Shown here: positions 16,224-63,991 of the stretch, piece after piece | Position numbering within the stretch: the first letter of the stretch is position 1 | How the letters are laid out: every line of letters begins with the position of its first letter | Translations under genes and position numbers: made by a program | The notes under the pieces: generated by a model | What the model was told of the DNA's origin: nothing | What the model saw: the letters and a program-made list of their open reading frames with translations, nothing else | Database searches by the model: none | DNA from: Naegleria gruberi | Taxonomy: Eukaryota | NCBI GenBank assembly: GCA_000004985.1 | Contig: GG738898.1 | Direction: 5' to 3' (one strand) | DNA length: 64,000 bases

Positions 16224-16327
16224 ATGGCTACGGCCATATCACGATGAATGCACCTCATCCCGTCCGATTTGAGAAGTTAAGCATCGTCGAGCCACATCAG
16301 TACTGAGGTGGAGACAACTTGGGAACC
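16224..16327 (+). rRNA. 5S ribosomal RNA, copy 1 (3' end runs into 50-N gap)
   Basis: GGCTACGGCCATATCACGATGAATGCACCTCATCCCGTCCGATTTGAGAAGTTAAGCATCGTCGAGCCACATCAGTACTGAGGTGGAGACAACTTGGGAACC has the canonical 5S helices I-V, the GGCCATA start and the CCCGTCCGAT and AGTTAAGC motifs. Confidence 0.8.
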
Positions 16328-16435
16328 NNNNNNNNNNNNNNNNNNNNNNNNNNNNNNNNNNNNNNNNNNNNNNNNNNGCAGCAGATTGGCTGTTTATTGT
16401 TAGTAATTTATGATATCATTAGAATCGTTAGATAA

Positions 16436-20455: not shown

Positions 20456-23400
20456 NNNNNNNNNNNNNNNNNNNNNNNNNNNNNNNNNNNNNNNNNNNNN
20501 NNNNNNNNNNNNNNNNNNNNNNNNNNNNNNNNNNNNNNNNNNNNNNNNNNNNNNNNNNNNNNNNNNNNNNNNNNNNNNNNNNNNNNNNNNNNNNNNNNNN
20601 NNNNNNNNNNNNNNNNNNNNNNNNNNNNNNNNNNNNNNNNNNNNNNNNNNNNNNNNNNNNNNNNNNNNNNNNNNNNNNNNNNNNNNNNNNNNNNNNNNNN
20701 NNNNNNNNNNNNNNNNNNNNNNNNNNNNNNNNNNNNNNNNNNNNNNNNNNNNNNNNNNNNNNNNNNNNNNNNNNNNNNNNNNNNNNNNNNNNNNNNNNNN
20801 NNNNNNNNNNNNNNNNNNNNNNNNNNNNNNNNNNNNNNNNNNNNNNNNNNNNNNNNNNNNNNNNNNNNNNNNNNNNNNNNNNNNNNNNNNNNNNNNNNNN
20901 NNNNNNNNNNNNNNNNNNNNNNNNNNNNNNNNNNNNNNNNNNNNNNNNNNNNNNNNNNNNNNNNNNNNNNNNNNNNNNNNNNNNNNNNNNNNNNNNNNNN
21001 NNNNNNNNNNNNNNNNNNNNNNNNNNNNNNNNNNNNNNNNNNNNNNNNNNNNNNNNNNNNNNNNNNNNNNNNNNNNNNNNNNNNNNNNNNNNNNNNNNNN
21101 NNNNNNNNNNNNNNNNNNNNNNNNNNNNNNNNNNNNNNNNNNNNNNNNNNNNNNNNNNNNNNNNNNNNNNNNNNNNNNNNNNNNNNNNNNNNNNNNNNNN
21201 NNNNNNNNNNNNNNNNNNNNNNNNNNNNNNNNNNNNNNNNNNNNNNNNNNNNNNNNNNNNNNNNNNNNNNNNNNNNNNNNNNNNNNNNNNNNNNNNNNNN
21301 NNNNNNNNNNNNNNNNNNNNNNNNNNNNNNNNNNNNNNNNNNNNNNNNNNNNNNNNNNNNNNNNNNNNNNNNNNNNNNNNNNNNNNNNNNNNNNNNNNNN
21401 NNNNNNNNNNNNNNNNNNNNNNNNNNNNNNNNNNNNNNNNNNNNNNNNNNNNNNNNNNNNNNNNNNNNNNNNNNNNNNNNNNNNNNNNNNNNNNNNNNNN
21501 NNNNNNNNNNNNNNNNNNNNNNNNNNNNNNNNNNNNNNNNNNNNNNNNNNNNNNNNNNNNNNNNNNNNNNNNNNNNNNNNNNNNNNNNNNNNNNNNNNNN
21601 NNNNNNNNNNNNNNNNNNNNNNNNNNNNNNNNNNNNNNNNNNNNNNNNNNNNNNNNNNNNNNNNNNNNNNNNNNNNNNNNNNNNNNNNNNNNNNNNNNNN
21701 NNNNNNNNNNNNNNNNNNNNNNNNNNNNNNNNNNNNNNNNNNNNNNNNNNNNNNNNNNNNNNNNNNNNNNNNNNNNNNNNNNNNNNNNNNNNNNNNNNNN
21801 NNNNNNNNNNNNNNNNNNNNNNNNNNNNNNNNNNNNNNNNNNNNNNNNNNNNNNNNNNNNNNNNNNNNNNNNNNNNNNNNNNNNNNNNNNNNNNNNNNNN
21901 NNNNNNNNNNNNNNNNNNNNNNNNNNNNNNNNNNNNNNNNNNNNNNNNNNNNNNNNNNNNNNNNNNNNNNNNNNNNNNNNNNNNNNNNNNNNNNNNNNNN
22001 NNNNNNNNNNNNNNNNNNNNNNNNNNNNNNNNNNNNNNNNNNNNNNNNNNNNNNNNNNNNNNNNNNNNNNNNNNNNNNNNNNNNNNNNNNNNNNNNNNNN
22101 NNNNNNNNNNNNNNNNNNNNNNNNNNNNNNNNNNNNNNNNNNNNNNNNNNNNNNNNNNNNNNNNNNNNNNNNNNNNNNNNNNNNNNNNNNNNNNNNNNNN
22201 NNNNNNNNNNNNNNNNNNNNNNNNNNNNNNNNNNNNNNNNNNNNNNNNNNNNNNNNNNNNNNNNNNNNNNNNNNNNNNNNNNNNNNNNNNNNNNNNNNNN
22301 NNNNNNNNNNNNNNNNNNNNNNNNNNNNNNNNNNNNNNNNNNNNNNNNNNNNNNNNNNNNNNNNNNNNNNNNNNNNNNNNNNNNNNNNNNNNNNNNNNNN
22401 NNNNNNNNNNNNNNNNNNNNNNNNNNNNNNNNNNNNNNNNNNNNNNNNNNNNNNNNNNNNNNNNNNNNNNNNNNNNNNNNNNNNNNNNNNNNNNNNNNNN
22501 NNNNNNNNNNNNNNNNNNNNNNNNNNNNNNNNNNNNNNNNNNNNNNNNNNNNNNNNNNNNNNNNNNNNNNNNNNNNNNNNNNNNNNNNNNNNNNNNNNNN
22601 NNNNNNNNNNNNNNNNNNNNNNNNNNNNNNNNNNNNNNNNNNNNNNNNNNNNNNNNNNNNNNNNNNNNNNNNNNNNNNNNNNNNNNNNNNNNNNNNNNNN
22701 NNNNNNNNNNNNNNNNNNNNNNNNNNNNNNNNNNNNNNNNNNNNNNNNNNNNNNNNNNNNNNNNNNNNNNNNNNNNNNNNNNNNNNNNNNNNNNNNNNNN
22801 NNNNNNNNNNNNNNNNNNNNNNNNNNNNNNNNNNNNNNNNNNNNNNNNNNNNNNNNNNNNNNNNNNNNNNNNNNNNNNNNNNNNNNNNNNNNNNNNNNNN
22901 NNNNNNNNNNNNNNNNNNNNNNNNNNNNNNNNNNNNNNNNNNNNNNNNNNNNNNNNNNNNNNNNNNNNNNNNNNNNNNNNNNNNNNNNNNNNNNNNNNNN
23001 NNNNNNNNNNNNNNNNNNNNNNNNNNNNNNNNNNNNNNNNNNNNNNNNNNNNNNNNNNNNNNNNNNNNNNNNNNNNNNNNNNNNNNNNNNNNNNNNNNNN
23101 NNNNNNNNNNNNNNNNNNNNNNNNNNNNNNNNNNNNNNNNNNNNNNNNNNNNNNNNNNNNNNNNNNNNNNNNNNNNNNNNNNNNNNNNNNNNNNNNNNNN
23201 NNNNNNNNNNNNNNNNNNNNNNNNNNNNNNNNNNNNNNNNNNNNNNNNNNNNNNNNNNNNNNNNNNNNNNNNNNNNNNNNNNNNNNNNNNNNNNNNNNNN
23301 NNNNNNNNNNNNNNNNNNNNNNNNNNNNNNNNNNNNNNNNNNNNNNNNNNNNNNNNNNNNNNNNNNNNNNNNNNNNNNNNNNNNNNNNNNNNNNNNNNNN

Positions 23401-24688
23401 NNNNNNNNNNNNNNNNNNNNNNNNNNNNNNNNNNNNNNNNNNNNNNNNNNNNNNNNNNNNNNNNNNNNNNNNNNNNNNNNNNNNNNNNNNNNNNNNNNNN
23501 NNNNNNNNNNNNNNNNNNNNNNNNNNNNNNNNNNNNNNNNNNNNNNNNNNNNNNNNNNNNNNNNNNNNNNNNNNNNNNNNNNNNNNNNNNNNNNNNNNNN
23601 NNNNNNNNNNNNNNNNNNNNNNNNNNNNNNNNNNNNNNNNNNNNNNNNNNNNNNNNNNNNNNNNNNNNNNNNNNNNNNNNNNNNNNNNNNNNNNNNNNNN
23701 NNNNNNNNNNNNNNNNNNNNNNNNNNNNNNNNNNNNNNNNNNNNNNNNNNNNNNNNNNNNNNNNNNNNNNNNNNNNNNNNNNNNNNNNNNNNNNNNNNNN
23801 NNNNNNNNNNNNNNNNNNNNNNNNNNNNNNNNNNNNNNNNNNNNNNNNNNNNNNNNNNNNNNNNNNNNNNNNNNNNNNNNNNNNNNNNNNNNNNNNNNNN
23901 NNNNNNNNNNNNNNNNNNNNNNNNNNNNNNNNNNNNNNNNNNNNNNNNNNNNNNNNNNNNNNNNNNNNNNNNNNNNNNNNNNNNNNNNNNNNNNNNNNNN
24001 NNNNNNNNNNNNNNNNNNNNNNNNNNNNNNNNNNNNNNNNNNNNNNNNNNNNNNNNNNNNNNNNNNNNNNNNNNNNNNNNNNNNNNNNNNNNNNNNNNNN
24101 NNNNNNNNNNNNNNNNNNNNNNNNNNNNNNNNNNNNNNNNNNNNNNNNNNNNNNNNNNNNNNNNNNNNNNNNNNNNNNNNNNNNNNNNNNNNNNNNNNNN
24201 NNNNNNNNNNNNNNNNNNNNNNNNNNNNNNNNNNNNNNNNNNNNNNNNNNNNNNNNNNNNNNNNNNNNNNNNNNNNNNNNNNNNNNNNNNNNNNNNNNNN
24301 NNNNNNNNNNNNNNNNNNNNNNNNNNNNNNNNNNNNNNNNNNNNNNNNNNNNNNNNNNNNNNNNNNNNNNNNNNNNNNNNNNNNNNNNNNNNNNNNNNNN
24401 NNNNNNNNNNNNNNNNNNNNNNNNNNNNNNNNNNNNNNNNNNNNNNNNNNNNNNNNNNNNNNNNNNNNNNNNNNNNNNNNNNNNNNNNNNNNNNNNNNNN
24501 NNNNNNNNNNNNNNNNNNNNNNNNNNNNNNNNNNNNNNNNNNNNNNNNNNNNNNNNNNNNNNNNNNNNNNNNNNNNNNNNNNNNNNNNNNNNNNNNNNNN
24601 NNNNNNNNNNNNNNNNNNNNNNNNNNNNNNNNNNNNNNNNNNNNNNNNNNNNNNNNNNNNNNNNNNNNNNNNNNNNNNNNNNNNNNNN
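20456..24688. other. Assembly gap (4233 N). Smaller 50-N gaps lie at 16328..16377, 38531..38580 and 54345..54394. There is a single ambiguous base at 28277.
   Basis: Runs of n in the sequence. Confidence 1.
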
Positions 24689-37947: not shown

Positions 37948-40450
37948 TTGAAAATGAGTCAACCACCTTCCGAACCAACTCAACCAGTATCATCATCACA
38001 GTATGTAGAAAGTCTACCAATTCCAGAGGAATCATCACCAAGATTTAGATCAAATTCAAGGTCTCGAGATGGACCACTCTCTCCTACCTTCCAAAAGATG
38101 CCAGCCGATGTTTGGGATTTATCCTCTGAACACCATTCGAAAAAAGCTTCTCTTCCAAAATCACCATCAAGCTTATTAAAGGGATCTAACTGCAATTTGC
38201 AACAAATTGGAAAAACCAACTCATCATCTCAAGTTACACATCATTCAAAGACAAAATTAACTTTGGACATTATTCGTAAATTGCCAAAAGCTGAATTGCA
38301 CAGACACTTGGATGGTTCTGTTCGTGTTGAAACCATCATTGAACTTGCCAAGGAACAAGGTGTCGATTTGCCATCATTTGATGTTGAAGAATTGAGAAAA
38401 CTTGTCTCTGTTACAAATGATTGCACTTCACTTGTTGAATATTTACGTGGCTTTGATATTTCCCTCTCTGTCATGCAAAAGAGATACAGTATCACACGTA
38501 TCATGTACGAAGTTTGTGAAGATGCTGGAANNNNNNNNNNNNNNNNNNNNNNNNNNNNNNNNNNNNNNNNNNNNNNNNNNAGGTATGAGACAAATGGATA
38601 GCAAGATTACCTTGCAACTTGCAGAAATTGCTTGGCGTTACAGAGACCGTGGTGTCTGTGCCTTTGACTTGGCTGGGCCAGAAAATGGCTTCTCCTCAAA
38701 GAACCATGCTTCTGCATTTGAATTAGTTCATCGTAAAATGTTGAACTGCACTCTTCACTCTGGTGAAGCCAGTGGTTGGGAATCTATTCAAGATTCAATT
38801 CGTTATTGTGGTGCTAATCGTATTGGTCACGGAACTCACTTGAAGGAAAATCCAGACCTCACTCAATATGTTGCCAATCACAGAATTCCAATCGAAATTT
38901 GTATCACCAGTAACTTGCAAACTAAGGCCATTCAAAAATTCGAAGAACATCCAGTTCGTGAATTCTTTGATTATGGTATTGTACTTGTTCCATGTACTGA
39001 TAATACTACTGTTAGTAATGTAACACTCTCTGAAGAATACTTGTTAATTCAAAACCAATTCGGATTTGATGTTAAGGAAATTGTCAAACTCATTGATTAT
39101 GGTTTCCGTTCTGCATTCTTGGACTTGTCTATTAAGAACAGACTCCGTGCTGATGCTCTCCATACCATTCAAGAAATCCTCTCCAGTGAAGGATACGACT
39201 TGACAAGTAGTTTCTCTGCCAAGTCTGCTGTTGATTTGGGCTTTGATTTCAACAATAGAGCTGAAATTCTCCCAGTTGACTATGATCTCTACAAGAATGA
39301 AACCATCAGACAATTCATCAATTCCATTCCAAAGGCTGATGTTAACTGTCGTTTCAATGGTTCAGTTTCTGTTGATACTTTGTGGACAAACTTGTCACAC
39401 GATGAATACTCTACCGATTTCCTCAATTTGGAATTGGAATTATTAGGATTGGGAAGAATTCACTCCAAGAATGAATTGGAATGTCTTATTAGACCACCTG
39501 GAGCCAAGCATGACAAGTCAACAATTGCTCGTGCCATTCAAGTCATGTCCTTGTTCTTACAAACTAAGAGTCAAATTATTCATGGTTGTGAAGATATTTT
39601 AGAAAAGGCTGCTGCTGAGCATGTCTTTTATCTTGAATTACAAGTGAGACCAACTATGCACACCAAGAGAGGTCTCAGTGCTCAAGAAGTTTTGGATGTC
39701 ATGGTTGTTACTATCAATGAATGCAGCAAGAGATATAATATTCAAGTTGGTCTCGTTGTTTATGGTGATTTTACTTCCGATGGTTTGGACCAATTGAAAG
39801 AACTTTCCCTCCTCACCATTAGAAATAAGAAGAATTTGGTTGGTTTTGGTTTCTTTGGATACAATGATGAAAAGGGTGCTATCCTCCCTGAATTAATCCC
39901 AGTTTTCAACATGTTGAAGAATCATCAAATTAACGTTTGCTGTTCTGCTGGTTTCTATAATCCTCTCAGTGTCATTCCTGCTATCCATGATGTTGGTGCT
40001 TCTAGATTGAGTGGTTGTTTCTCCATCCACTCTTCTCCATCTGTCATGAGCTACTTGTGTGACAATGGTGTTCCTATTGAAATTTCCATGACTGATACTT
40101 TGAAGAATCTCACAAAGGAAGTTAATGAATTTGCTGGATCTGCTGTCAGATTATTCTTGGATAGAGGTATCAAGGTTGCTCCATGTTCACTCGATTTGAC
40201 CTTGTACGATATGAATCGTTCTGAAAATATCTACTTGATGTCTAAGGAATGCAATTTGAGTTTGAACGAAGTTGTTCAACTCATGTTAATTGGTTTCCGT
40301 ATCTGTTTCCAAAACTATTGGACTCGTAAGGAAATGTTCATTGGTGCCTATCACACAATGTTGAAATTGGTTGATAATTTGAAACTCACATTTGACACTG
40401 ATTCATTCTCCCTCTTCTGTTCCTCATACAATCCAGCGGAAAAGGATTGA
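37948..40450 (+). CDS. Adenosine/AMP-deaminase-family protein with two tandem ADA-fold domains (first intact, second degenerate); spans a 50-N gap
   Basis: Domain 1 has LPKAELHRHLDGS (HxH), HSGEA, RIGHG and VPCTDNT. Domain 2 has NCRFNGSVSVD, CCSAGF and SMTDT at the equivalent positions. ORFs 37948..38601 and 38402..40450 join across the N gap. Confidence 0.8.
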
Positions 40451-44744: not shown

Positions 44745-47532
44745 TTACAAAACAAAATTGAGAAGGACAATCAAGAAGGCACCAATAAGGAGTGAATAGA
44801 AATTCTTAGGTGCCTTGCTGAGGACCATTTCCAATTCTGTTTGTTGGATATTGAAAGTGCTTGAAATGACCATACTGAAATTTTGATCGCCGACATTGTT
44901 TTCATTTGCCATGACGTTTACAGTGCAAATGTCACTCTTAGTAGTAAAGTACACCTGTTCGACAGTATTAACCTTGTCCAACATTCCATTCCCTAAATAT
45001 TCTTCACCACCCGTACAATGAACAGAAAGATCCAAATCATTGATTAATTTGGTAACATTGGAAGTCATGTCTGATTGAGAAGCTCTATCATACCATGTAA
45101 GAGTAATCTTGATAGCATTCCTAGCTTCGAAAAGGAAGGTATAGGATTTCTTTTGTCCTGGTGAAATTGGTTGTCTATTCAAAACTCTGAGAGTATCTGG
45201 ATTGGAGAATTTCATAACAGTGTCCAAACTAACTGTACCATAACCATAAATAGGATTTGGAGAAGAATAACTTGAAATATCAATGGAAGGATCAGTGAGA
45301 GATGAATAGATGGCACCTTCAACTGGAAGTGCAGAGTGAATAAGGAAGGCCTTAATCAAAGTACCTGACACACTCAATGTTTCATTCTCTCCCAAAGTGT
45401 TATTCAAATTGAAATATCTCAAACGTTCATAATTATTAGCAGTGAGATATTCTCTAACAAGTGCAGCCGAACCCGACTAAATAACACCATGTGCCAAATT
45501 CAGTAAATACAATAACTTATTAAAGTAAAAAATAATAGAAATAACATACGACACCTGGTGTTGACATTGATGTTCCGCTCAATGCCACAAAGTCACAAGT
45601 TGATCCACTCTTTGCAGACATTATGAAATGACCTGGGGCCATAACATCTGGCTTGTTTCTTCCATCCATGGTTGGACCTTTTCCTGAGAAGAGAGGCATT
45701 CCCATACTGAAAGTTGAATACTTGCTTTCACATTTGGAGGCACTCATTGAGGTAGAATTACAATAGGATGTGTAATAGTTGTGAACTGCTCCGACAGAGA
45801 GTAAATTCTTGGCTGTTGCTGGAGCTGAAATACTTTCTAAAAGTGAAATATTGCCACTGTTACCTGAAGCTTGGACAATAATCATGTCATCGTGGTCATA
45901 GAGGAATTGATCCATCAAACTTGCTTGGTCACTGTAGCCAAGACATTGTTGGTGACATTTCACACCCTTCTCTGCCATGCATTCAGTGTCATTGACTATG
46001 GCTCCTCTTTGTCCATTCTGTTTCAATCGGTAACAAACTCTGTTATAGTCGCAAGAGTAACTTGAAGGTTTGCATCCCCAAGAGTTGGAGTGAATTCTAG
46101 AGCCAGCCAAATTGTAAGCTCTATTTAACATTCCTTGTAAATCATAGTTTGATGCCACAGAACCATCAGCACTTGAAGAGAAATCAATCACATAGAGTTT
46201 TGCATTCTTGGCCACACCATTTCTTTTCGACATTGAACTGGAAGGATATCTAGATGACAAATCACCAGCAATAATACCAGCAACGTGTGAGCCGTGTCCA
46301 TTGGTATCAATCATGTCCATTCCTTCAATACCAACAACCTTTTTATGATTGAAATTAATGGATGTATAGTTGGTTGCATTCTTATCGTAGAATAAACAGT
46401 GCTCTACAGAAATTCCTGTATCAATATAGGAAACAATTTGATTCTTTCCTGTAATTCCGTTATCCCAAATGGTTGATCCTAATTCTTCAATTCTTCCTCC
46501 TTGAACAACATTGTTCATTCCCTCATCGAAGAGTTGAGTTTCAGTAGCTCTGGAAACATGGATAATTGACTCATCAGAGGAAAGTTGTTCATAGAGAGAT
46601 TGGGCTAATTGTACATTCAAATTCTCAAGCATTCTTCTATTTCTTGTTGGTTCAGACTCCACTTCAATGAATTGATTTGGGCTCAATGAAAATAACTTAT
46701 TTCTTGGGTGGAGGAGTTGAGTGAGTGAAAAATCAAACTTTCCGCTCAATTCCTTATTCATCCATTCAGTATTGGATTCAAAGGTTGATTCTAATCCTCT
46801 CACTCTGGACAATTCACTTTCAGACATACTCCTTACAGTGGTTCTCACTCGCTTGTTTACTTCTCCCTTTAACCAATTCGAAAGCTTTCTCTCTGAAAAT
46901 CCATGAGATGTTTCAATCAAGAGTGGAGCTCTACTCAATGATAAAACATCACTAATAGGAATTGAAATTCTATGAGAGGAAGGAACTCTCTTAATCCACT
47001 CAATATTCAATGATTTCATTCTTGATGAAGCCAAAGAGAGAATAACCTTCGGAGTTGCTAGTACCTTAAAGATTCTATTGTTTGTTCCGTATTGTGGTAC
47101 AAAGTTCTTGTCAAAGTTTGATGTTTTCTTCATCAAATCATTTTCCTTATTATCATCGTTGTTTTCAAAGGCAAGAGCTATTTGTTGGAGAAGTGAATCT
47201 TTCAAAAGGACTCCATCAGCAATTTTAATATAAGTCAATAAGTAATCATTCGGTCTATCAAAGAGCATTGCTTTGTATTGTTCAATATTAGAACTAATTG
47301 AAGTTGAAGCAACTTTCACTTGTATCTTTGTTTGATGATGAAAGGAGAGAAATAATTTGGCCAAACAAGGACCCACCGATTCAAATCTTGATATTTCTGT
47401 TGCATTTACATTCCCCAACAGACAGAACAACACAACGATCATCATCATTGCAACAATTAAAAAAGCAGAAGTAACACCTCTTCCGCTGTTGTTACTCGTC
47501 CTCATCCTCTTCTTCTTCTCTAATATCTCCAT
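44745..47532 (-). CDS. Subtilisin-like serine protease (peptidase S8) with signal/TM N-terminus, pro-region, and C-terminal domain ending in a TM anchor; two exons
   Basis: Exons are 45550..47532 (ATG at 47532) and 44745..45476, with a 73-nt GTATGT…TTTAG intron. The catalytic triad motifs are VSYIDTGI (Asp), TNGHGSHVAGIIAG (His) and ALSGTSMSTPGV (Ser). The C-terminal hydrophobic stretch is FYSLLIGAFLIVLLNFVL. Confidence 0.85.
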
Positions 47533-47735: not shown

Positions 47736-48933
47736 TTATTGCTTCTTTGCTTTTTGCTTCTTTTCTATAAGAGCAAATTCCCTTATCATTTGAGATGCCA
47801 TTTCATCAAAATGTGTTGGGTTGTGCTTCTTAACTTGGTCATCAGATGATAATTCTTTCATTACATTTGAAATTTTCGTTTCCACCTGTTCCCAGTCCTT
47901 ATTAAAGAGTTGAAGAACAGATTTTTTGTAAGTTTCCACAATTGCTTTTGCCAATTCATCCAAAAGAGCCTCATTACTAATCATATCTTTTCTCACTTCC
48001 ATTGGTATTTCTATTTGGAGAGCTGGCATTCCTAACATGACTGATTGATGACTTATTGTTGTCACTGTATTTTCACCCCAATATCCATGCAAGTGTGGTT
48101 CACTGTCAATGGTCAGTTTCATTCCAGAATAGGTCCTATTGCATGTTGAAACAGCAAGTTGAATATTATCACAAAGATCCTTCTTGAAATGTTGAAACCC
48201 TTTCAAATCTTTCCATAATACTTCCATTGGTTTAGTTCCAATATCGAGATTTCTGTCATTTTTTGCATTTGCCTTACCATGAAGGTCAACATGTAAGGTA
48301 GGAAATCCTGAATATTGATTCTTCATCTTGAGAAGGAATAAGTGGAATGGTGAACTCATAAATTGCTTTTCCACAAGATAATTAGGATCCAAATTACTCT
48401 TATCCTATCATTTGCAATACGATCAATGTCAATTAAAATTACAAAATACAAACCTTTGCTTTTGCAGTTTTAGGATTCCACATGATGAAACTTCCCTCAA
48501 TTCCCAAATATTTCTTCACATGCAAAGAAAGAAGCAGACAAATTTCATTGGTATATATTTCTTTAGCATGAACACTCTCTTCTTTCTTTGAAATTGCTCC
48601 TCCTCTATAAACTTGCAATCCGTGAGGTGCTGAAAACAATATCGGACCAGCCAAGTGATCAATATGATTTGAATATTCAGCATCACCCGAAGAAGAAGCA
48701 TCCAATTTAATACTATATAAATCATGTTCAGTAGATGTTACCTGTGCCTTTTTACTCGCCTTAGTAGATTTACTAGTATCATCACTCGTCTTCGGAACCT
48801 TAGTTGAATTCTTATTCTTCTTTGATGATTTGTTGGATGATGAATCATTTTCAATTTTAATATATAATGCGGTATTCTCTGTTATGTTGCTGCTCTTCAT
48901 GGCTTTTGAAGGTTTGCTTGAGCTGGTGCCCAT
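47736..48933 (-). CDS. Hypothetical protein with N-terminal MGxxxS (possible N-myristoylation), Ser/Lys-rich region and a C-terminal metal-hydrolase-like domain (possibly N-formylglutamate-amidohydrolase-like); two exons
   Basis: Exon 1 is about 48441..48933 (MGTSSSKPSK…). Exon 2 is 47736..about 48394. A 46-nt intron with GTTTGT…GATAG lies between them. The motifs LFSAPHG and FPTLHVDLHGK are suggestive only. Confidence 0.35.
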
Positions 48934-48981: not shown

Positions 48982-49634
48982 GCAGAACCTTTAGAAAATA
49001 TAAATTGTAATATTTATTAACGTCTCTTGTATCGTAAAGACCTGAGAGACGAGGTCTACAACCAGTACGTTTCGGATCAGCGTTTAAGTGTTATGGGTTG
49101 ACGCTAAGTGGTTGTTTAGACTGGGCCTGCCTGTGGTAGGCAGAGAGGTATTTCCTGTTAATAGTGAAGCTTGCATTGGGACGGTAGTACCACACTGAGT
49201 TCTTGTACAAATAAATAGCTAGTGCTTTGTAGACTTCTAGGGCCACATTCTTAGGTAGTCTTTTGCGCTTAGACCAGTTAAGTCATTACGGGAGCAACGA
49301 CCATCAAATTCTATCCTAAGTTGAGAGGATTCTGAGACATCAGGAGGGAATCTGTAGTTTCACCCTTGAGCGCCTTATTTATCATGGCTCTTGCGATTTT
49401 TTGGGTGATAGGAGAGCATCTACGCTTGAGAGGTATCTAGGTACAGAAAGCACTTCAGAGATAATATTACGTTCCTCATTGGACCGAGTCTCAAGTGTTT
49501 TGGTCTGAAATTTAGTAATCTGGATTCAACTTTTAAGAGAACCTTATCATCGGAGGGAGACCAAGACATGTTATTAATAAAGGAGGTGTAGATACTCTAA
49601 CGGATTATTCTCAGAACTGAACCTTTAGAAAAAA
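48982..49634. repeat. GC-rich (about 45%) non-coding island of about 610 bp flanked by 16-18 bp direct repeats (CAGAACCTTTAGAAAA); candidate SINE-like or retroelement insertion, or ncRNA locus
   Basis: Direct repeats lie at 48982..48999 and 49612..49633. No ORF of 60 aa or more occurs on either strand. Composition differs sharply from the flanks. An internal hairpin GACCTGAGAGACGAGGTC is present. Confidence 0.35.
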
Positions 49635-50074
49635 TCCAAATAACATGTTAAGAAAACTAATAAACAGATGATGAAAATTAACAGACAACATTATCATGCC
49701 AAGTGATCAGTACTAAACATGAATTGTTAGGAGGTATAGTATACTTCAAAAAGGTAAAAAGGCATGGGTGGAGTTTCGCCACCAACACTTCAGAGAAATG
49801 AGCTGATCGTGATGTTAGAATTACACTACATGCCTCAAATACAATTCAATTTCACAACCTATCTTACCTTCAGTTTGTTTTAAATGTTCACTTCATTATG
49901 GTATTATTCTTTTCTTAAACTACTCTGAAGGTTCAAAACACACTATTAGTTATTTAACTGATGTCTAATGTACTTCAAGTTCTAAAATACCATGACATAA
50001 CATTAGTTTCTATAAGAAATGAACTTTTTTTAATTTCTAAATTTCCAAACCACAACCCAAGTTCACTTTGGCCA

Positions 50075-50281: not shown

Positions 50282-50352
50282 TCGGGTGTGGTATAGTGGT
50301 AGCATTCCAGACTGTCACTCTGGCGACCCGGGTTCAATTCCCGGCACTCGAG
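50282..50352 (+). tRNA. tRNA-Asp(GUC): tRNA-Asp (anticodon GTC)
   Basis: TCGGGTGTGGTATAGTGGTAGCATTCCAGACTGTCACTCTGGCGACCCGGGTTCAATTCCCGGCACTCGAG. The 7-bp acceptor stem includes one G-U pair. The D arm is GTAT/AGTGGTAG. The anticodon loop is CTGTCAC. The T arm is CCGGG-TTCAATT-CCCGG. The fold is close to eukaryotic tRNA-Asp. Confidence 0.9.
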
Positions 50353-50750: not shown

Positions 50751-51203
50751 ATGATGCTTAATTGTCAATTCAGTGATGAAATTATCAAAACCTATGAAGA
50801 AATGAGAATGGGAAAGGGTTCGAATAAGGATAAAAAGTTCCTAGTATTGAAAATGCAAGAAAGTTCCATTCAAATAGATCAAGAATTGACTCAACTCTCT
50901 TCATTGGATGAATTGACTTCTAATCTTCCACCAAAAAATTCTCGTTTCATTTGCTATCATTTAAGTTTCGAAATGCCATCTCAAAACGAAACTTGTCAAA
51001 TCAGAGAAGGAATCAGAACTAAAATGATGTTTCTCACATGGTGTCCAAACGAAACCAATGTTAAGGAAAAGTTTCAAGTTGCTGCCACTGTCAAAACAGT
51101 TAAACAAAAATTAAATGGTTTGAGTGCAACTATTCACTGCTCAACCAAGAGTGAAATTGATGAAAAGTCAATGATTGAAAAATGTTTAACTTTTATGAAA
51201 TGA
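50751..51203 (+). CDS. ADF/cofilin-family (ADF-H domain) actin-depolymerising-factor-like protein
   Basis: 150 aa. It fits the cofilin/GMF pattern (C.FSDEII..YEEM.MGK…KKFLVLK…LPPKNSRFICYHLSF……KMMFLTWCPNETNVKEKFQVAATVKTVKQKL). Confidence 0.65.
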   Translation: MMLNCQFSDEIIKTYEEMRMGKGSNKDKKFLVLKMQESSIQIDQELTQLSSLDELTSNLPPKNSRFICYHLSFEMPSQNETCQIREGIRTKMMFLTWCPNETNVKEKFQVAATVKTVKQKLNGLSATIHCSTKSEIDEKSMIEKCLTFMK

Positions 51204-51337: not shown

Positions 51338-51874
51338 TTACAATTTGCTAGATAACCAATCTAAACCTTCAAATAAACCAGTGCCATTCATTGCGCTACA
51401 TGGTTGTATATACCAATCTTGTTTGATTGAATTTAATTGCAGAATCTTGGCAAGATCTGTAACATTGGCAGCTCTTGGTAAATCTTGCTTATTAGCCCAC
51501 ACCAATAACTTGGCATTTGATAGAGATGGATCTTCCATTACTTTATGCAATGTTTCCGAAACTTCTTCAAATCTCTCTCTATCATTCGAATCGACAATGA
51601 ATATCACAGCATCTGTTCCATTATAATAATGTCTCCATAAGGTTCTAATCTTATCCTGACCACCAATATCAAACACTCTGAATTGAACTCTCTTATATTG
51701 AATCACTTCGGCATTGAAACCAATAGTAGGTATAGTATTGACATTCTCATCTAATTGAATCTTGTACAGTGTTGATGTTTTACCAGCTGCATCCAAACCT
51801 AAGAAGAGAATTTTTGCTTGTTTGTTTTCGAATAGGGATAAGTTCTTTATCATGTTAGAAAGTAATTGACCCAT
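51338..51874 (-). CDS. ADP-ribosylation factor (ARF) with N-terminal Met-Gly (myristoylation-competent)
   Basis: 178 aa. MGQLLSNM…[36 protein letters not shown]…[16 protein letters not shown]…ANKQDLP…[20 protein letters not shown]. Confidence 0.9.
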
Positions 51875-52113: not shown

Positions 52114-54760
52114 TTACTCAGAAGTATTATCATTAATTTCTGCCATTATTGAATCGATGGAACTTTTTGGTTCATTAAGGACCGATAATATTTCCTCATC
52201 TTTTTGAAAAGTAGTATCGAGATGTTCATAAATTTCATCATATTTACGAATGACCATCTTGATTATTTCCTTGTCTATTAATAAGGATCTACAACTCAAA
52301 TAAGCACGAGGAAATTTCTCTAATATTGGAAGCATAAATTCCTTGTCGTCTAAATCCTTGGTTTCCAAATAAAGCAATAAACCTATATCCTTGGATTTAA
52401 ATATTCCACTCCTTACTAATTCTCTATTTGGTTTTGTAATGTATCCTGAACCAATTAATTTTTTTAAATGCTTTGCTTGGAATTCATCATCAAGTTTTAA
52501 ATCTTTGGATAATCGAGGAAAGTAGGTATGATTCAGATAAGTTTCAATTATTATTTGATTATTTCTTAAATTATTGCATGATAGATTTTCATATAGAGCA
52601 GGATATATTTCAATTATTTCATTTACCAATTCAATGTCATCTGAACATTTTTGCATCAATTCATTTCCTTGTTCTTTCACTTCAATGGCATGAATCAAGT
52701 GAGAGAAACCCTGTTTATCAAGGCGCAAGTTCTTAATAAAATCCAAACCAATGTTGGAAATATTAATTGTAGAATCTTTCAAAAAACTTGATGTAAAATA
52801 CCCTTTTTTGGTACGAGTAATAATTTTCAATATGAAATCTGCGTCGTGTTGATAGTAAAACAACTCAGGCAGTGGTACACCCAACAATATTAAATCTAAC
52901 ACTCTTTCTTTTGAAATATTTTCAAACAATTCCTGTTTGAAATGTGTGTGATAATTTTCACTCAAACAATTCAATATTTTTTCTATTTCTTCACTTGAAA
53001 ACTTGTCTGATAATATTTTTCTGAGAATATCTCGATCCATTTTTCTTCTATCTTCCAAAGTAAAATATAAACTAGGTGTTATTACCTGTACCAATGAGTC
53101 ATGATCCAAATGGTCCTTCAAATTATGGAAAGTCTTGGAATTTTCTGTAATTATCTCTATAAAAAAATCTTGAGTTTTAAGATCTTCAGGTAGACAATTA
53201 AAATTTGAATCAAAATCACGTTGTGATTTGCAGCCTTTCATTGCAAGTTTGGCAAATAATCTATCTTTTAAACTACTCTCACTTAAGGATGCATAAAAAG
53301 TCGGATCTACTTCCAAAATTTCCTTTGCATATTGTTGTTCATATTTAAATCTTAACTCATCTGAACTGATGTCAGTGATAAACTTTGGATTTTTCTCTAG
53401 TACATATTGAATTATTTCTTCATCATCTCGGTAACTACAATGCTGGAAACATTCTTCCACTTTTTTGATGAATGAAAATACAATATTTCTATTAAATTTG
53501 TACTTGAAAGGAAAGTAATTAAAAAATAGAGAGTCATACTCTACTAATATTTCCAACTGACTCTCGCTTAACTTTTCCATCTCTATCTGGATTCTCTTTC
53601 CTGTATTATATTGTACATTTCTAAGCACATGAACGTCTATGAGTTGTGAAATTAAGGACTTAAACTTATCTATGCAAGCCTTATTTCTGTTTTGAAATAT
53701 TAATACTGATCTGACATCTCTTATTGACTTTCTAACTATATTTTCATCCAACAAATCGTCAGGAACCATTTCGAAAATACGGTGATTGTTATCCAATACT
53801 TTGTAAATAAAGCGCTTATTTTTGTTGTAAGGGCAAAATTTTAAACAATTTGGGTTCATAACACAAGCATGCAAGTACTTATCCCACTGCGTTCTGTTTT
53901 TTGGATCTTTAAATGCTATGGTAGTTGCAAGTGAAATATCAGCCAATACATTCATCATTTTCATTCTTGTTGGGAGAGTTGAATTTTTAAGACTAGTAAT
54001 AATTTCTTTCAAAAGAGGAGTACTATTGATAGTGGTTTTGTTGGATAATCGTTCAAGTGTTACACCTAGGGCGTACAAATCAGTTTCAGTTTTGAAAGGA
54101 AACTCTAGTAAACCTCTTTTTTCGGTGTTAAAGTATTTTTCAATTTCTGGATCGTAATATTGCTCAGTTCCAGTTTTGAATTGGTAGGGCTTGTATGAGT
54201 TTTTCTTAAAAGATACTCCAAAGTCTGTCAATACTACATAAATATTAGAATCAGTAATTTCCTTCACGAGTATGTTAGCAATTTTGACGTCTCGATGACA
54301 TAGTTCCTGTTCTGAAATATATTTAATAGCACTTGAAATTGACANNNNNNNNNNNNNNNNNNNNNNNNNNNNNNNNNNNNNNNNNNNNNNNNNNTCTCTG
54401 CTTCAGGTAATTGTACTTTGTTTTCAATATCAATATTAACATCGTCCATTAGCTTTTCTTTTTCGGAATAGCTTGTTCATAGGTTGGACTTTCTGGCATA
54501 AAAAAGTGAGTTGGGCCACTGGTAGGTTCATCAGCTTGGTCATCCTTGTTTCCTTCTACTGTTGTATCATCCTCTTCATCAGAATATTCTCTTTCTCTCT
54601 TGTTGAAAGAATTTAACATTTTAAAGATTTTTTTTAATTTTAAATTATCTTGTGAAATCATCTCACTTTTCCAAGTTGTCAACTTGCTCATCCTGCAGCT
54701 TAGAATTTGAAATAAACTAAAATAAAATAAATTAATCCAAGCAATAAACAACGTATCCAT
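52114..54760 (-). CDS. Atypical Ser/Thr protein kinase with long C-terminal domain, copy 2 (inverted paralog of 16756..19531); contains a 50-N gap and an N-terminal frame break at an A-run
   Basis: ORF 52114..54267 is continuous through the region that is frameshifted in copy 1. N-terminal pieces are 54449..54760 (MLNSFNKREREYSDEEDDTTVEGNKDDQADEPTSGPTHFFMPESPTYEQAIPKKK) and 54264..54449. It is about 93% aa-identical to copy 1. Confidence 0.75.
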
Positions 54761-59900: not shown

Positions 59901-62900
59901 TTACCTGTACAATAACATGTACCCGTCTTTGTGCAGGTACCATGTGAATTACAAGTGGTTGCAGCAGAACAAGCAATATCACATTTATCTCCAACAAATC
60001 CACTCTTGCAAGAAGAACAAAATTCTCCATCAAAATTTCCATTACAAACACATTTGAAATTGGAATCACAAGAACCATGAGAGTTACAAGTTTCTGTTGG
60101 TGAACACATTGCAGTTGAGCAAGTTTCTCCTGAATATGCTGGACTGCAGCTAGTGCAGGTATTATTCTTATTATTCCAATTGGCAACACATTCACATGTA
60201 TTTGGAGCAATACATTTTCCTCTAGTGCTTCCACCACAAACATTGCTGTCACTCTTTGGAATACCGTAACAGGAAAAGCTTTGACAAATTGATCCAGAGT
60301 ATCCAGACCTACATGAACAATTATTAGGAGCAGTACATTCACCTCTGCTACCACACACAGAACTATCAGTTGCAGGAGTATTATAACAAACAGGTATGTC
60401 ACACTTGGATCCCATATAACCAGTCTTACAAGATAAACAGAATGTAGAAGGATCAAAATTACCCTTACAAATACATGTATCAGTGGCATTACATGCACCA
60501 CGCAAAGAACATCCTCCCAAAATTTCACTCTTACCATTACATGTTGGATTATCACATTTAGCACCTGTTGAGCCAGATTTACAAATGCAAGTATCTGGGG
60601 CAACACATGAACCCTTTCCAGAACATACAGATGCATCACTATTAGTCTTTGAGAAACATACTGGTTTTTCACAATTAGTTCCATCATAACCAGTTACACA
60701 ACGACAAACATCTTGAGAAATACAAGAACCCTTACCAGAGCAAACATCATAGGCTTTTGCCAATTTTCCAAAGCAAGTAGTGGTGTCTGGAAGATAAAGT
60801 CCATAATGACAACTTGATTCTGGGAAATAGCTACATGACTCATTCTTTGGTAATGACCAGAAAGCACTGGCTTGGTCGTACATTACTTCACAGGCAGCTC
60901 TACAGAATGGAACAGAATTGGCTGTGGTGTTTTTGCACGACATGAAAGTTCTGTAACATGCATTTCTTTTGATATGAATCAAACAATCGGCAGTAACGCA
61001 GTTAGGATTGTACAATGATCCCATTTGGAATGTTGAATTAGCTTGAGCATCCAATTTAGCAAGATTTGCAGCAAGGAAAATAGAGGCTTCACCTGCACTC
61101 TTTGCTCCTGACATTAAATTCAAATTGTACAATGGTAAAATGACGTCAGCAGCATAACAGAATGGAGTAGAAGAGGAAGACATTTCATTGATACAAGCTG
61201 GAGTAAGTGAGAAGGAGGTCTTTTCACAATTGTTACCTTCATATCCAGAATCACATATGCATCTTCCATTCTTACAAGTACCGTGGTCAGAACAGGAAAC
61301 ATCATAGCATTGATCAACATAATTAATCTCTGATGAGCAACCCTCATTGTCATTCAAAGAACCACACAAAGTTTCCAGAGAGTTATTTCCAACTAAATAA
61401 GGCATCAACATAGTTTCGCATGCACTTTTACAGATTGGATTGTATACTCCTTTAACAAGTTCAGTAACCCAAGAGCACATTGGGAAATGTGAATAGCAAG
61501 AATATCTCTTGTAGACCAGACGACAAGCTTCTGTGGTACATGCAATCATGAGTTGTTCGGCCATTGTACGAGATGACTGATCCAAAACTTTGAGAGCAGC
61601 AATTCTGACCTGTGGTACTGCAACCTCACCTGTATAATTTGCTAACAGATTATATCCGTCTTGTGACAAGTACTGCATTATATAGTGTTCAACACCAGCA
61701 GCTACACAAAAAGGTGTGTTTGCGGCTTGCATGCCAGTGTAACAAGTGACAGCAGCATATTTTGAACAGGTTGGACCATAATAAAAGTAATCTGGTGTGG
61801 ACTGACAAATACATTTTCCGGCAAGACAAGTTCCATTAACACATTGGTTATTACATGAATCTGTTTCAGTGTCATTTACAATCACCAAGTCTTGGCACAT
61901 AGTCCCAGTGTATCCTGTGTCACAAGAGCATTTTCCTTCCAAACAAGTTCCATTATAACATTTTATGCTAAAACAAAGATCTGTTTGATTTTTGACTACA
62001 TCTGATTGATCACACAATGTTCCAATGTAACCAGAGTCACAATTACAAACACCCTCAATACATTTTCCATGTACACATACAATATCTTTACACTTATTTT
62101 GAGTGGAGGTGTTGTTTGTGCTTGTATCATTTGATGGAATAGTATTATTATTGGAACTTGGGAGAGTTGAATTTGAGGTTGTCGAATTTGAGGAACTATC
62201 AGGACTGGTTCCATTGTAAGTTTGAGTACTGTTACTTGTACTATTATAATCAGTAATATTAGAGGAGTTTGGGCTTGTTGGATCCCTGCTTGTGTTGTTT
62301 GTGGCTGTGTCATTGGATAATGTAGTATTTTTTCCATGGGAGCTATCAAAACTAGTTCCATTATTTCCTTGAGTATTGTTGCTACTAGTACTATTGTGGT
62401 TAGTAATATTAGTGGAGCTTGGACTTGATGGATCAATATTCGTGTTGTTAGTAGTTGTTGTGTTATTGGATAAAGTGGTATTACTTGTATTGGTTGTGTT
62501 GCTGGTTGTTGAAGCATTGGCAACTGTGTCAGTATTGACAGAAGGTTCTAAAAGTTTCAATTCACAGAAAGTTCCATTATATCCCTGTCCACAAACGCAA
62601 ACGTTATCAGTGGTACAATTACCATGAGAGTTACAAACAAAAGAATCATAGGAACGTGTTCCATTACATACATAATAACTTGATGAACAATCGCTTCCAT
62701 AGAAAGATGCCTTACATGAGCAACCAGAAAAAGTGCAATTACCATTTCCTGAACAAGCAAGTTTTGATGATTGGGGAATGTCATTACAAATAGCTTCATT
62801 TTCACAAAAAGTTCCATTGTAACCAGCTTTGCATAAACATTGATTAAGGCCTATACATTGACCATTTCCAGAACAAACATTGTCCTCTGTTTCCAACAAT

Positions 62901-63991
62901 CCATTACAAACATAGTGAGTGAATTGACATTCTTGTCCATATGCCAATGTAGTTCGTGGTTCTGATGAAGTACCAATTGAGAAGACAACTGCTCCCTTAG
63001 AGTTATAAATCCTAAAAGTACCATCATTTCCAAAGTTAAACATTGGTGGGGTGTTTGCACCCACACCATGACAAAAATCGTTTTCAAGGTTCAAAATACT
63101 ACTATCGAAAGTGGTAGTGAAGAAATAGCCTTCACGTGTTATCCAAAAATATTCAATGGGAGTAAACTCCCCTTCTAAAATTCTCCACAATTCCTTTCCA
63201 CCACATTTAGAGACAACTCTAGTGCTGGTGTCATTGTTTTCATTAAGATAATACTCAACACCCAAAGTGCAGTTACCATTTGATGATGTAAGGTATAGAT
63301 TTGTATTGCTATCAAAATTAATATGATGGTCTCCATTCGCAACAATCATTTGATCATTTGTGCAACTACATAAAGAACTATTGAGACAAGAACCACGATA
63401 GTGGCATGACTTGGCACTTTCACAAACAAAGTCATATATTTCACAATTCGAACCAGTGTAGCTCAAATTGATACAATCACACGTGTCATCAGCAGTACAT
63501 TTTCCAGCGCCACTACAAACATTCGGATCGGATTCAGAAACATTGAAACATGAAAAATGGCAATCAGGATAGTGACCTCCAGTACAAGTACAATTATTCG
63601 TTGCAACACAAGTGCCTTTTCCATTGCATACCTTAGAATTGCTTGCATCATATCCAAAACAAACATGTTTTGAACAATCAGAGCCTCCCCATACTTCTGG
63701 TGAGTTACATTTACAACCACTTTCTGTACATATTCCTCTTCCATTACAAACAGTTGGATCAGTACTAACAATGTTATCGCAATAATGTAATGGTTCTTCA
63801 CATGTTGTTCCATTAAAATCTTGCCATTGGATGGACGAATCAAAGAATCCTGTTGACCAACATTCCTTACCTGTGGAATCATAGACTGTAAATAAGGCAT
63901 CCTTTCTGAAGAAGGAATAGAATGGAGCAACTCCTTCACATGGAATTGAAGTGTTGCCATCCTTATTGACAAGTGGAGAACAATTATTCAC
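56981..63991 (-). CDS. Giant (more than 2300 aa) cysteine-rich cell-surface protein: N-terminal tenascin-type EGF/Cys-rich repeats, N/S/T-rich mucin-like stretch, more EGF repeats, about 1000-aa Cys-poor S/T/A/V-rich region, C-terminal hydrophobic anchor; N-terminus may extend beyond the window
   Basis: Single 7 kb ORF. It has many CxCxxGYxGxxCE repeats (e.g. CLCKAGYNGTFCENE, CVCGQGYNGTFCELK, CDSGYIGTLCDQ). A poly N/T/S segment is probably glycosylated. The C-terminus is …NLSCLISFLLAIVVFYQY* (TM or GPI signal). Confidence 0.8.
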   Translation of the reverse strand: MNNCSPLVNKDGNTSIPCEGVAPFYSFFRKDALFTVYDSTGKECWSTGFFDSSIQWQDFNGTTCEEPLHYCDNIVSTDPTVCNGRGICTESGCKCNSPEVWGGSDCSKHVCFGYDASNSKVCNGKGTCVATNNCTCTGGHYPDCHFSCFNVSESDPNVCSGAGKCTADDTCDCINLSYTGSNCEIYDFVCESAKSCHYRGSCLNSSLCSCTNDQMIVANGDHHINFDSNTNLYLTSSNGNCTLGVEYYLNENNDTSTRVVSKCGGKELWRILEGEFTPIEYFWITREGYFFTTTFDSSILNLENDFCHGVGANTPPMFNFGNDGTFRIYNSKGAVVFSIGTSSEPRTTLAYGQECQFTHYVCNGLLETEDNVCSGNGQCIGLNQCLCKAGYNGTFCENEAICNDIPQSSKLACSGNGNCTFSGCSCKASFYGSDCSSSYYVCNGTRSYDSFVCNSHGNCTTDNVCVCGQGYNGTFCELKLLEPSVNTDTVANASTTSNTTNTSNTTLSNNTTTTNNTNIDPSSPSSTNITNHNSTSSNNTQGNNGTSFDSSHGKNTTLSNDTATNNTSRDPTSPNSSNITDYNSTSNSTQTYNGTSPDSSSNSTTSNSTLPSSNNNTIPSNDTSTNNTSTQNKCKDIVCVHGKCIEGVCNCDSGYIGTLCDQSDVVKNQTDLCFSIKCYNGTCLEGKCSCDTGYTGTMCQDLVIVNDTETDSCNNQCVNGTCLAGKCICQSTPDYFYYGPTCSKYAAVTCYTGMQAANTPFCVAAGVEHYIMQYLSQDGYNLLANYTGEVAVPQVRIAALKVLDQSSRTMAEQLMIACTTEACRLVYKRYSCYSHFPMCSWVTELVKGVYNPICKSACETMLMPYLVGNNSLETLCGSLNDNEGCSSEINYVDQCYDVSCSDHGTCKNGRCICDSGYEGNNCEKTSFSLTPACINEMSSSSTPFCYAADVILPLYNLNLMSGAKSAGEASIFLAANLAKLDAQANSTFQMGSLYNPNCVTADCLIHIKRNACYRTFMSCKNTTANSVPFCRAACEVMYDQASAFWSLPKNESCSYFPESSCHYGLYLPDTTTCFGKLAKAYDVCSGKGSCISQDVCRCVTGYDGTNCEKPVCFSKTNSDASVCSGKGSCVAPDTCICKSGSTGAKCDNPTCNGKSEILGGCSLRGACNATDTCICKGNFDPSTFCLSCKTGYMGSKCDIPVCYNTPATDSSVCGSRGECTAPNNCSCRSGYSGSICQSFSCYGIPKSDSNVCGGSTRGKCIAPNTCECVANWNNKNNTCTSCSPAYSGETCSTAMCSPTETCNSHGSCDSNFKCVCNGNFDGEFCSSCKSGFVGDKCDIACSAATTCNSHGTCTKTGTCYCTGNYDPAFNCIPGKCLNGFRGDACNYKVDTTSFKFNANGDRITAKIYNTVKKQVPCSQIISNLDKLGSGPQCNMDGKSSLEIVLGAGASIVTGNILSVYSLMGDNNSTLAVSIDAGEFVAIAPTASLTSDKTLVSQCDVLSLNAFDSVSLDRRPLTFSWTCTNGPSSEDQSKLSSLISSQKSGYKINMRTAGLSAGIYSIQVAVSSAFGLTSFKSISFTVIAKAAPTLSVKEGLSIKYLIGSIGLITPVISFPVCYNGTGSTTYTFTLDGSVSKVSSLSTSVNNNMMILGSGYTNINLEGDYFFVIKATADVAEPVTTTVKVTAEAQPILVSFSVPDITQSKDDPIEFSISVKDPSNTQDVLSLSTNCVDSTGLNCPSSPEDASTFRASFSSGTYTFTAVATKGSRKAKATLTISLIDSAKDKIIRVSIISNVDLTTVDPTKDLYLTYNTLDKLLSPSFSWVSETGDESKASLLTIPSANLVSGASYVVTLLVDDGDKSGIASLTFTVNSPPTKGTFEVYPEIGVALSDSFDLKCGNGWSDPQTPLKFQFFYYDSASTKWNSFTEKSERQSASVQLPQPASGTSLRVKAVVYDSLGAASESETTVTITKLSAAAATSALSVIASGKDTVTLAAASSVMSVIGSIDNPSEEQKAAIQQAASSITEAFLNQQAKAEAVTSVSSASAENSLSFTASVSASVAKGLVSDSTTSKVVENLAKTTSAVVKSSSASLSNSAIEGTTSTANNFLDYIVKKGVTKRVFSNADIANLDKVFASVATLKTKDSVPDGPAATVTANGVTTVSRKVNIVTLNNLVQTTTGKNQIMFKSGVSALSELANTKSVHLVVKTASSTAISNAVTKSMEFSLSNDTSVISVSSNSVIADLVFETKGLSSRSVAGTITSCKKIDPTTSNLLDVGCTVVLGTDGTVTASVKSTGIYVLIQSTTTDPISSTKISMAPAVNLSCLISFLLAIVVFYQY

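Follow-up and report, generated by a model that had tools for sequence, protein, structure and literature searches.

The GC-rich island at positions 49000 to 49611 of the 64-kb stretch of Naegleria gruberi DNA that was analyzed here (hereafter the window) is almost certainly a dead, 5'-truncated, minus-strand copy of a multi-copy N. gruberi LINE that is flanked by a target-site duplication of 12 to 19 bp. It is an unannotated copy of an ordinary kind of genomic fossil and not a new RNA gene; this copy is unable to encode a protein or to transpose and has no demonstrated function. An earlier reading made from the letters of the same DNA (the sequence-only reading) had proposed that the direct repeats at both ends of the island look like target-site duplications left by a SINE or non-autonomous retroelement, and the core of this proposal, a retroelement unable to move by itself, was right. 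The repeats coincide exactly with the two ends of the LINE homology (Table 1).

Table 1. Features of the LINE copy in the island (positions are those of the window; remnants are matched to N. gruberi protein P0029, and L003 and L004 are contigs with related elements)
Feature	Position	Strand	Basis or remark
Left direct repeat CAGAACCTTTAGAAAATAT	48982-49001	.	Target-site duplication beside the element 3' end
LINE 3' UTR, ca. 90 nt, complete to the 3' terminus, without poly(A)	49002-49090	-	Similarity to L003 and L004
AATAAA hexamer, ca. 12 nt before the element 3' end	49013-49018	-	Also in L003
3' UTR stem-loop (CGTCTCT, 17-nt loop, AGAGACG)	49021-49051	-	Both arms in L003
TAA stop of the LINE ORF, after ...PLSVNP	49091-49093	-	
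ORF remnant 6 (LNWSKRKR...PLSVNP), C-terminal 63 codons	49094-49282	-	P0029 791-856; 57/66 identical
ORF remnant 5 (RFPPDVSESSQLRIEFDGRCSRN)	49285-49353	-	P0029 766-788; 22/23 identical
ORF remnant 4 (SPITQKIARAMINKALKGETTDSL)	49344-49415	-	P0029 601-624; 24/24 identical
ORF remnant 3 (EVLSVPRYLSSVDA)	~49412-49454	-	P0029 522-536; same weaker match as remnant 1
ORF remnant 2 (SFINNMSWSPSDDKVLLKVESRLLNFRPKHLRLGPMRNVILS)	49459-49587	-	P0029 480-521; 42/42 identical
ORF remnant 1 (S-E-NNPLEYL)	49589-49615	-	P0029 469-477; within a weaker, longer match
Right direct repeat CAGAAC(TGAAC)CTTTAGAAAAAAT	49612-49635	.	Target-site duplication beside the truncated 5' end

Six-frame translation of the island gave a single strong match, the 856-aa N. 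gruberi protein XP_002676178 (P0029) from a different scaffold (E 3.4e-57). In tblastn, P0029 is matched by six collinear minus-strand segments in three alternating frames that cover its residues 469 to 856, with the ORF homology running on the minus strand from 49615 to 49094; the segment that yields the fully identical stretch of remnant 2 spans 49584 to 49459. Remnant 6 is about 91% identical to P0030 and P0074, and the stitched translation of the island reaches 93% to 95% identity to N. gruberi P0029, P0030, P0074, and P0075. Such high residue identity between copies suggests that the family was active fairly recently. A long ORF hence does emerge after correction of indels, as the sequence-only reading had foreseen for the case of a degraded gene, but its source is a retrotransposon and not a degraded host gene, so that the recovered ORF confirms a mobile element. 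The raw six-frame translation of the island yielded no Pfam domain, since its segments are of insufficient length and are not covered by the Pfam models for reverse transcriptase (RT) and endonuclease.

The GC content amounts to 41.2% over 49000-49611 and to 42.4% over 49030-49600 compared to a mean of 32.3% for the whole window and 33% to 35% in the flanks, which puts the island within the highest 2.4% of windows of 612 bp. The enrichment described previously is therefore genuine, though the contrast is smaller than the ca. 45% in the island and 25% to 30% in the flanks that had been given, and it results from LINE coding sequence sitting in AT-rich intergenic DNA. Also the absence of any ORF of 60 aa or more holds, with a longest start-to-stop frame of 51 aa, a longest stop-to-stop frame of about 62 codons, and stop codons throughout all six frames of the island. 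Neither terminal inverted repeats nor long terminal repeats were found at the island, and there is no second copy of it within the 64-kb window. The window belongs to a draft nuclear scaffold with runs of N at 20456-24688 (4.2 kb), 38531-38580, 54345-54394, and 28277, so that further repeats, including transposon copies, could hide in these gaps.

With P0029 as the query, an exhaustive HMMER search recovered 44 relatives (E<=1e-3). The C-terminus is common, at 90% identity or more, to at least five N. gruberi gene models that lie on five different scaffolds and differ in their N-terminal extents (XP_002676178, XP_002669669, XP_002682177, XP_002668186, and XP_002673784), the N. gruberi protein XP_002681148 bears the endonuclease part, and a relative of the family was found in Willaertia magna. 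In two of the relatives, P0034 and P0035, the region that aligns with the island is preceded by a reverse transcriptase with a YADD motif (RVT_1; E 1.8e-37 and 4.4e-39, respectively); the island copy lacks the RT core owing to its 5' truncation and contains no endonuclease domain either. An endonuclease scores above the Pfam cut-off in P0063 (33.0 bits for Exo_endo_phos_2, cut-off 27.4) and in P0041 (24.6 bits for Exo_endo_phos, cut-off 24.5), and the N-terminal endonuclease/exonuclease/phosphatase-like domain of P0029 stays below both cut-offs (22.3 versus 27.4 and 21.2 versus 24.5), as do the endonuclease matches of N. gruberi P0032 and P0076, with scores of 20 to 22 bits across the three models. 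Against solved structures, the RT-bearing relatives match best the reverse transcriptases of R2 and LINE-1 ORF2p, with R2 scoring above L1, a comparison with the PDB that places the RT as a generic non-LTR RT and in no particular clade. Judged by the domains found in its protein sequences, the family is an APE-type non-LTR retrotransposon with endonuclease, reverse transcriptase, and a C-terminal Cys/His domain.

The RT core is missing in all N. gruberi gene models of the family that we examined, and no intact RT-bearing copy was found among them. The two longer models of the family, P0029 and P0076, lack this core with differing breakpoints (LLTV/SKNNPLEYLG in P0029 and DSWKA/VDISHVERM in P0076). 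P0076 corresponds to XP_002673784, a chimeric gene model of 1920 aa on another scaffold in which an EGF-repeat host protein is fused to LINE parts, i.e., an RRM-plus-coiled-coil region that is possibly a LINE ORF1, part of an endonuclease, the beginning of the RT, and the C-terminal region of the LINE. Its EGF part resembles an EGF-repeat coding sequence at 59909-63817 (minus strand) of the window. JGI metagenome contigs were scanned both by protein and by a degenerate DNA pattern and gave no match.

The homology of the island begins at P0029 residue 469, about 55 codons past the RT YADD motif, and no match to upstream LINE sequence was found to the right of 49635, so that this copy is 5'-truncated. 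About 176 of the last ca. 390 codons of the ORF are retained. Remnants 3 and 4 adjoin with deletion of P0029 residues 537-600 (64 codons, including GGLGL), and remnants 4 and 5 adjoin with deletion of residues 625-765 (141 codons, including the Cys/His motif CDKCNVKEDWTHxFQTC). P0029, P0031, P0034, and P0035 contain the two blocks, and P0030 contains the one of 141 codons; since the relatives possess them, the deletions arose in the lineage of the island copy. The matches of remnants 4 and 5 overlap by 10 nt (49344-49353), and we infer that short direct repeats on either side probably led to the loss of the 141-codon block. The reading frame is shifted in at least three further places, at LEYL(GA)SF, VILS(K)VLS, and RND(W)LNW; the change of frame between remnants 5 and 6 would reflect a loss of 4 nt, given that P0030, P0074, P0075, and P0076 read through, and a 9-nt in-frame deletion in remnant 6 (loss of ENC) affects a stretch that independent copies and relatives read through as well. 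This indel load, comprising at least three frameshifts, the 9-nt deletion, and the two large deletions, is heavy in view of a residue difference from the relatives of only about 5% to 7% and counts as a point against the interpretation.

At its other end, the island has kept the true 3' terminus of the element, since the 3' UTR is conserved in elements of two other samples (L003 and L004). Compared to the related element on Logan contig L003, the island is 69% identical over 283 nt, and a manual count from the alignment gives roughly 85% identity for the last ca. 60 nt; the protein of the L003 element is 54% identical across the whole alignment and 58% identical in the C-terminal segment matched by tblastn. 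The 3' UTR (L003 1262-1332 and L004 2407-2445 versus 49002-49090 on the minus strand) is better conserved than the neighboring coding sequence with a protein identity of only about 52% to 58%, and the stem-loop core GTCTCT...AGAGAC and the AATAAA hexamer fall into this conserved stretch. L004 has the 5' arm and the loop of the stem-loop up to its contig end. Taken by itself, the 3' UTR gave no significant fold (z -0.16), and a search of L005 and P0040 for additional 3' UTRs found none. Within a comparison set of two full UTRs and a partial one, the conservation of the 3' UTR suggests that it may serve as a cis-acting 3' recognition element. The 3' UTR ends with ...GTTAATAAATATTACAATTTAT, after which the left repeat follows. 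There is no A-run at the end of the element, ...AATAAATATTACAATTTAT(ATTTT), and the end of the L003 element is alike, which argues against an L1-type tail though not against LINE membership.

The near-identical direct repeats reported at both ends of the island are confirmed, with GAACCTTTAGAAAATAT (48985-49001) and GAACCTTTAGAAAAAAT (49619-49635) being identical at 16 of 17 positions. Both copies are preceded by CAGAAC, and the right copy carries an additional TGAAC. When up to two mismatches are allowed, exactly these two occurrences are found in the 64-kb window where 0.08 would be expected (100 shuffles). The terminal AAAAT of the left repeat (ATTTT on the minus strand) could alternatively represent the element's own U-rich terminus. 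Since both elements (island and L003) end with TATTTT and the left repeat starts with ATTTT on the minus strand, the duplication measures at least 12 bp (CTAAAGGTTCTG) and at most about 19 bp. Next to the related element on L003, we looked for a target-site duplication and found none.

A retained 3' end, truncation at the 5' end, and a duplication of 12 to 19 bp together are the standard signature of target-primed reverse transcription. By this mechanism, the endonuclease would have nicked the plus strand of the window after ...GAAAAAAT, and the A-rich 3' end at the nick would have annealed to the U-rich terminus of the element transcript to prime cDNA synthesis. An early stop of synthesis or joining would have caused the 5' truncation, and a staggered second nick 12 to 19 bp away, followed by fill-in of the gap, would have generated the direct repeats. 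The 5' end may have been joined via a microhomology of a few bases (TCTG/GTTC) that left the extra TGAAC behind, and about 4 nt are shared by the P0029 homology and the right repeat. The allele before insertion would read ...GGGGCAGAACCTTTAGAAAA(A/T)ATCCAAATAAC.... The internal deletions may have been present in the source RNA already or may postdate the insertion, and the former is plausible because other N. gruberi copies (P0029 and P0076) are internally deleted at other points.

Had the element been inserted in its deleted form, it could belong to a non-autonomous, amplifying subfamily of deletion derivatives, i.e., a SINE-like "mini-LINE" that is mobilized in trans via the 3' stem-loop. 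The recognition-like element in the 3' UTR is intact and conserved, a residue identity of 93% to 95% despite the large deletions fits deletions older than the insertion, and the differently placed deletions of P0029 and P0076 point in the same direction. We nevertheless consider such a subfamily unlikely, since the junctions SSVDA/SPITQ and TDSL/RFPP are absent elsewhere among the 44 family representatives or cluster members and since the island copy, truncated inside the ORF and devoid of a 5' UTR or promoter, is itself no source of further copies.

The tRNA-Asp(GTC) gene that had been noted to the right of the island was confirmed at 50282-50352 (plus strand), 646 bp past the end of the right repeat. 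The LINE fragment thus lies 646 to 670 bp upstream of a pol III gene, and one might suppose that this gene dictated the insertion site and that the family targets pol III genes in the manner of Dictyostelium TRE and DGLT-A or yeast Ty1 and Ty3. We regard this as very unlikely because it is one observation only, no tRNA gene is found on the related-element contigs L003 and L004, the window's only other pol III gene (5S) has no LINE fragment nearby, and the distance does not fit the fixed short spacing of known tRNA-targeting elements. In Dictyostelium and for Ty3, such targeted insertions lie within tens of bp to ca. 100 bp of the tRNA gene. With Dictyostelium TRE5, TRE3, and DGLT-A or yeast Ty3, the island thus shares a retroelement near a tRNA gene and differs in a distance that is not in the range of tens of bp and in a host that is not an amoebozoan. 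The view of the sequence-only reading that tRNA-proximal insertion is typical for amoebozoan elements does not apply to N. gruberi, which is a heterolobosean (Discoba). The genome paper reportedly puts the size of the N. gruberi genome at about 41 Mb. This genome contains 924 tDNAs (PMC2888827). At that density, several percent of random intergenic sites would lie this near a tDNA, so that the proximity is not unusual. The 5S rRNA gene itself is located at 16226-16343 (plus strand; 60.7 bits), and its 3' end enters a 50-base run of N at 16328-16377; over about its last 16 positions, the match consists of masked or gap bases, so that the end of the gene and its terminator are unreadable.

Arrival at the DNA level, be it by capture of cDNA or DNA in double-strand-break repair or by ectopic duplication and with the repeats as repair microhomology, would agree with the untidy 5' junction and its extra TGAAC as well as with the unusually high indel load. 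It appears extremely improbable in view of the exact and conserved 3' terminus, the truncation on the 5' side only, and the duplication of 12 to 19 bp, because a random captured fragment is not expected to preserve a precise 3' end.

The sequence-only reading had also offered a structured RNA gene delimited by the repeats as an alternative. A GC-rich, ORF-free island in AT-rich DNA adjoining a pol III gene would suit such a non-coding RNA gene (for instance, telomerase RNA, RNase P/MRP RNA, or a snoRNA). We see virtually no chance of it, since Rfam at E<=10 over 48700-50400 matches the tRNA alone, folding is not significant compared to shuffled sequence (z -0.89 on the plus strand and -1.64 on the minus strand), and homology to the LINE ORF and UTR accounts for the entire island. 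Rfam at gathering thresholds and at E<=10 returned this tRNA and, elsewhere in the window, the 5S gene and nothing else. Telomerase RNA was rejected specifically because the island contains no template, i.e., no 8-nt permutation of the complement of TTTGGG, the candidate telomere repeat of N. gruberi (PMC3622300). The suggestion of a SINE fell as well, given that the island has no tRNA-, 7SL-, or 5S-like head (Rfam E<=10) and that its body consists of LINE ORF remnants and LINE 3' UTR.

As a 5'-truncated LINE copy, the island resembles the "dead-on-arrival" LINE-1 copies of mammals in its intact 3' end, its 5' truncation, its duplication of 12 to 19 bp, and the microhomology and extra bases at its 5' junction. 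The parent element shares with LINE-1 an APE-type endonuclease and a reverse transcriptase, and the RTs of the family match LINE-1 ORF2p structures. Unlike LINE-1, the island element has no poly(A) and its target is not of the TTTT/AA type; the likeness is one of structure. A poly(A) tail characterizes L1 but is not typical of every LINE clade, and stringent-type LINEs such as eel UnaL2/L2, CR1, and RTE are recognized by a 3' UTR stem-loop and have no poly(A). With the latter, the island has in common a short 3' UTR, a stem-loop with stronger conservation than the coding sequence beside it, the lack of poly(A), and a short defined terminus, though recognition of the Naegleria stem-loop by the RT is something that we only infer. 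The best-known LINEs of Discoba are ingi/L1Tc of kinetoplastids together with their deletion derivatives RIME and NARTc. Like ingi/L1Tc, the N. gruberi family belongs to the APE-type LINEs, has a discoban host, and includes many copies with internal deletions; the likeness is one of general features. Unlike RIME-type derivatives, which retain both element ends, the island copy has no 5' end.

To the left of the island lies a minus-strand gene (47736-48933) of two exons with a 49-nt GT-AG intron predicted from the sequence, and it encodes a protein with 100% identity to N. gruberi XP_002672404 (NAEGRDRAFT_72598), which identifies the window as nuclear DNA of this species. The LINE fragment is found 48 to 67 bp upstream of the ATG of this gene and in the same orientation, with the left repeat starting at 48 bp. 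No Pfam domain was detected in NAEGRDRAFT_72598, homologs with 32% to 47% identity occur in molluscs, MMETSP/EukProt protists, and metagenomes, and its N-terminus MGTSSSK might be an N-myristoylation signal. Further to the left, a subtilisin-like (Peptidase_S8) gene at 44787-47532 (minus strand) appears to extend in further exons to about 44800. A protein 98% identical to its product is encoded on the 3.9-kb contig L001 of ENA metagenome ERZ929261, indicating a very close N. gruberi relative in that sample, and this contig stops short of the island. At the locus of the subtilisin homolog in N. fowleri, no synteny was found. To the right of the tRNA gene follow a cofilin/ADF gene (50751-51203, plus strand) and an Arf-family GTPase gene (51338-51874, minus strand).

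A broader reading would see in the family a Heterolobosea-specific, poly(A)-less LINE lineage that uses 3' stem-loop recognition and a U-rich RNA terminus primed on A-rich nicks and that survives in N. gruberi mainly as RT-deleted, trans-mobilized derivatives, with the island copy in addition supplying part of the promoter or 5' UTR of NAEGRDRAFT_72598. We hold this wider scenario to be distinctly improbable.

The interpretation as a dead LINE copy traces a peculiar island, GC-rich and devoid of ORFs, to a fossil retrotransposon, and its significance lies mainly in annotation. The five "predicted proteins" that share the C-terminus of the family (accessions given above) are LINE-derived or chimeric and should be masked. 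The transposable-element content of N. gruberi was given as 0.28% (bioRxiv 10.64898/2026.06.24.734286), most of its repeats are unclassified (PMC12344493), and our search of the literature found no description of N. gruberi non-LTR or LINE families. The copies described here provide an initial outline of a LINE family for a genome that has been reported to be very poor in transposable elements.
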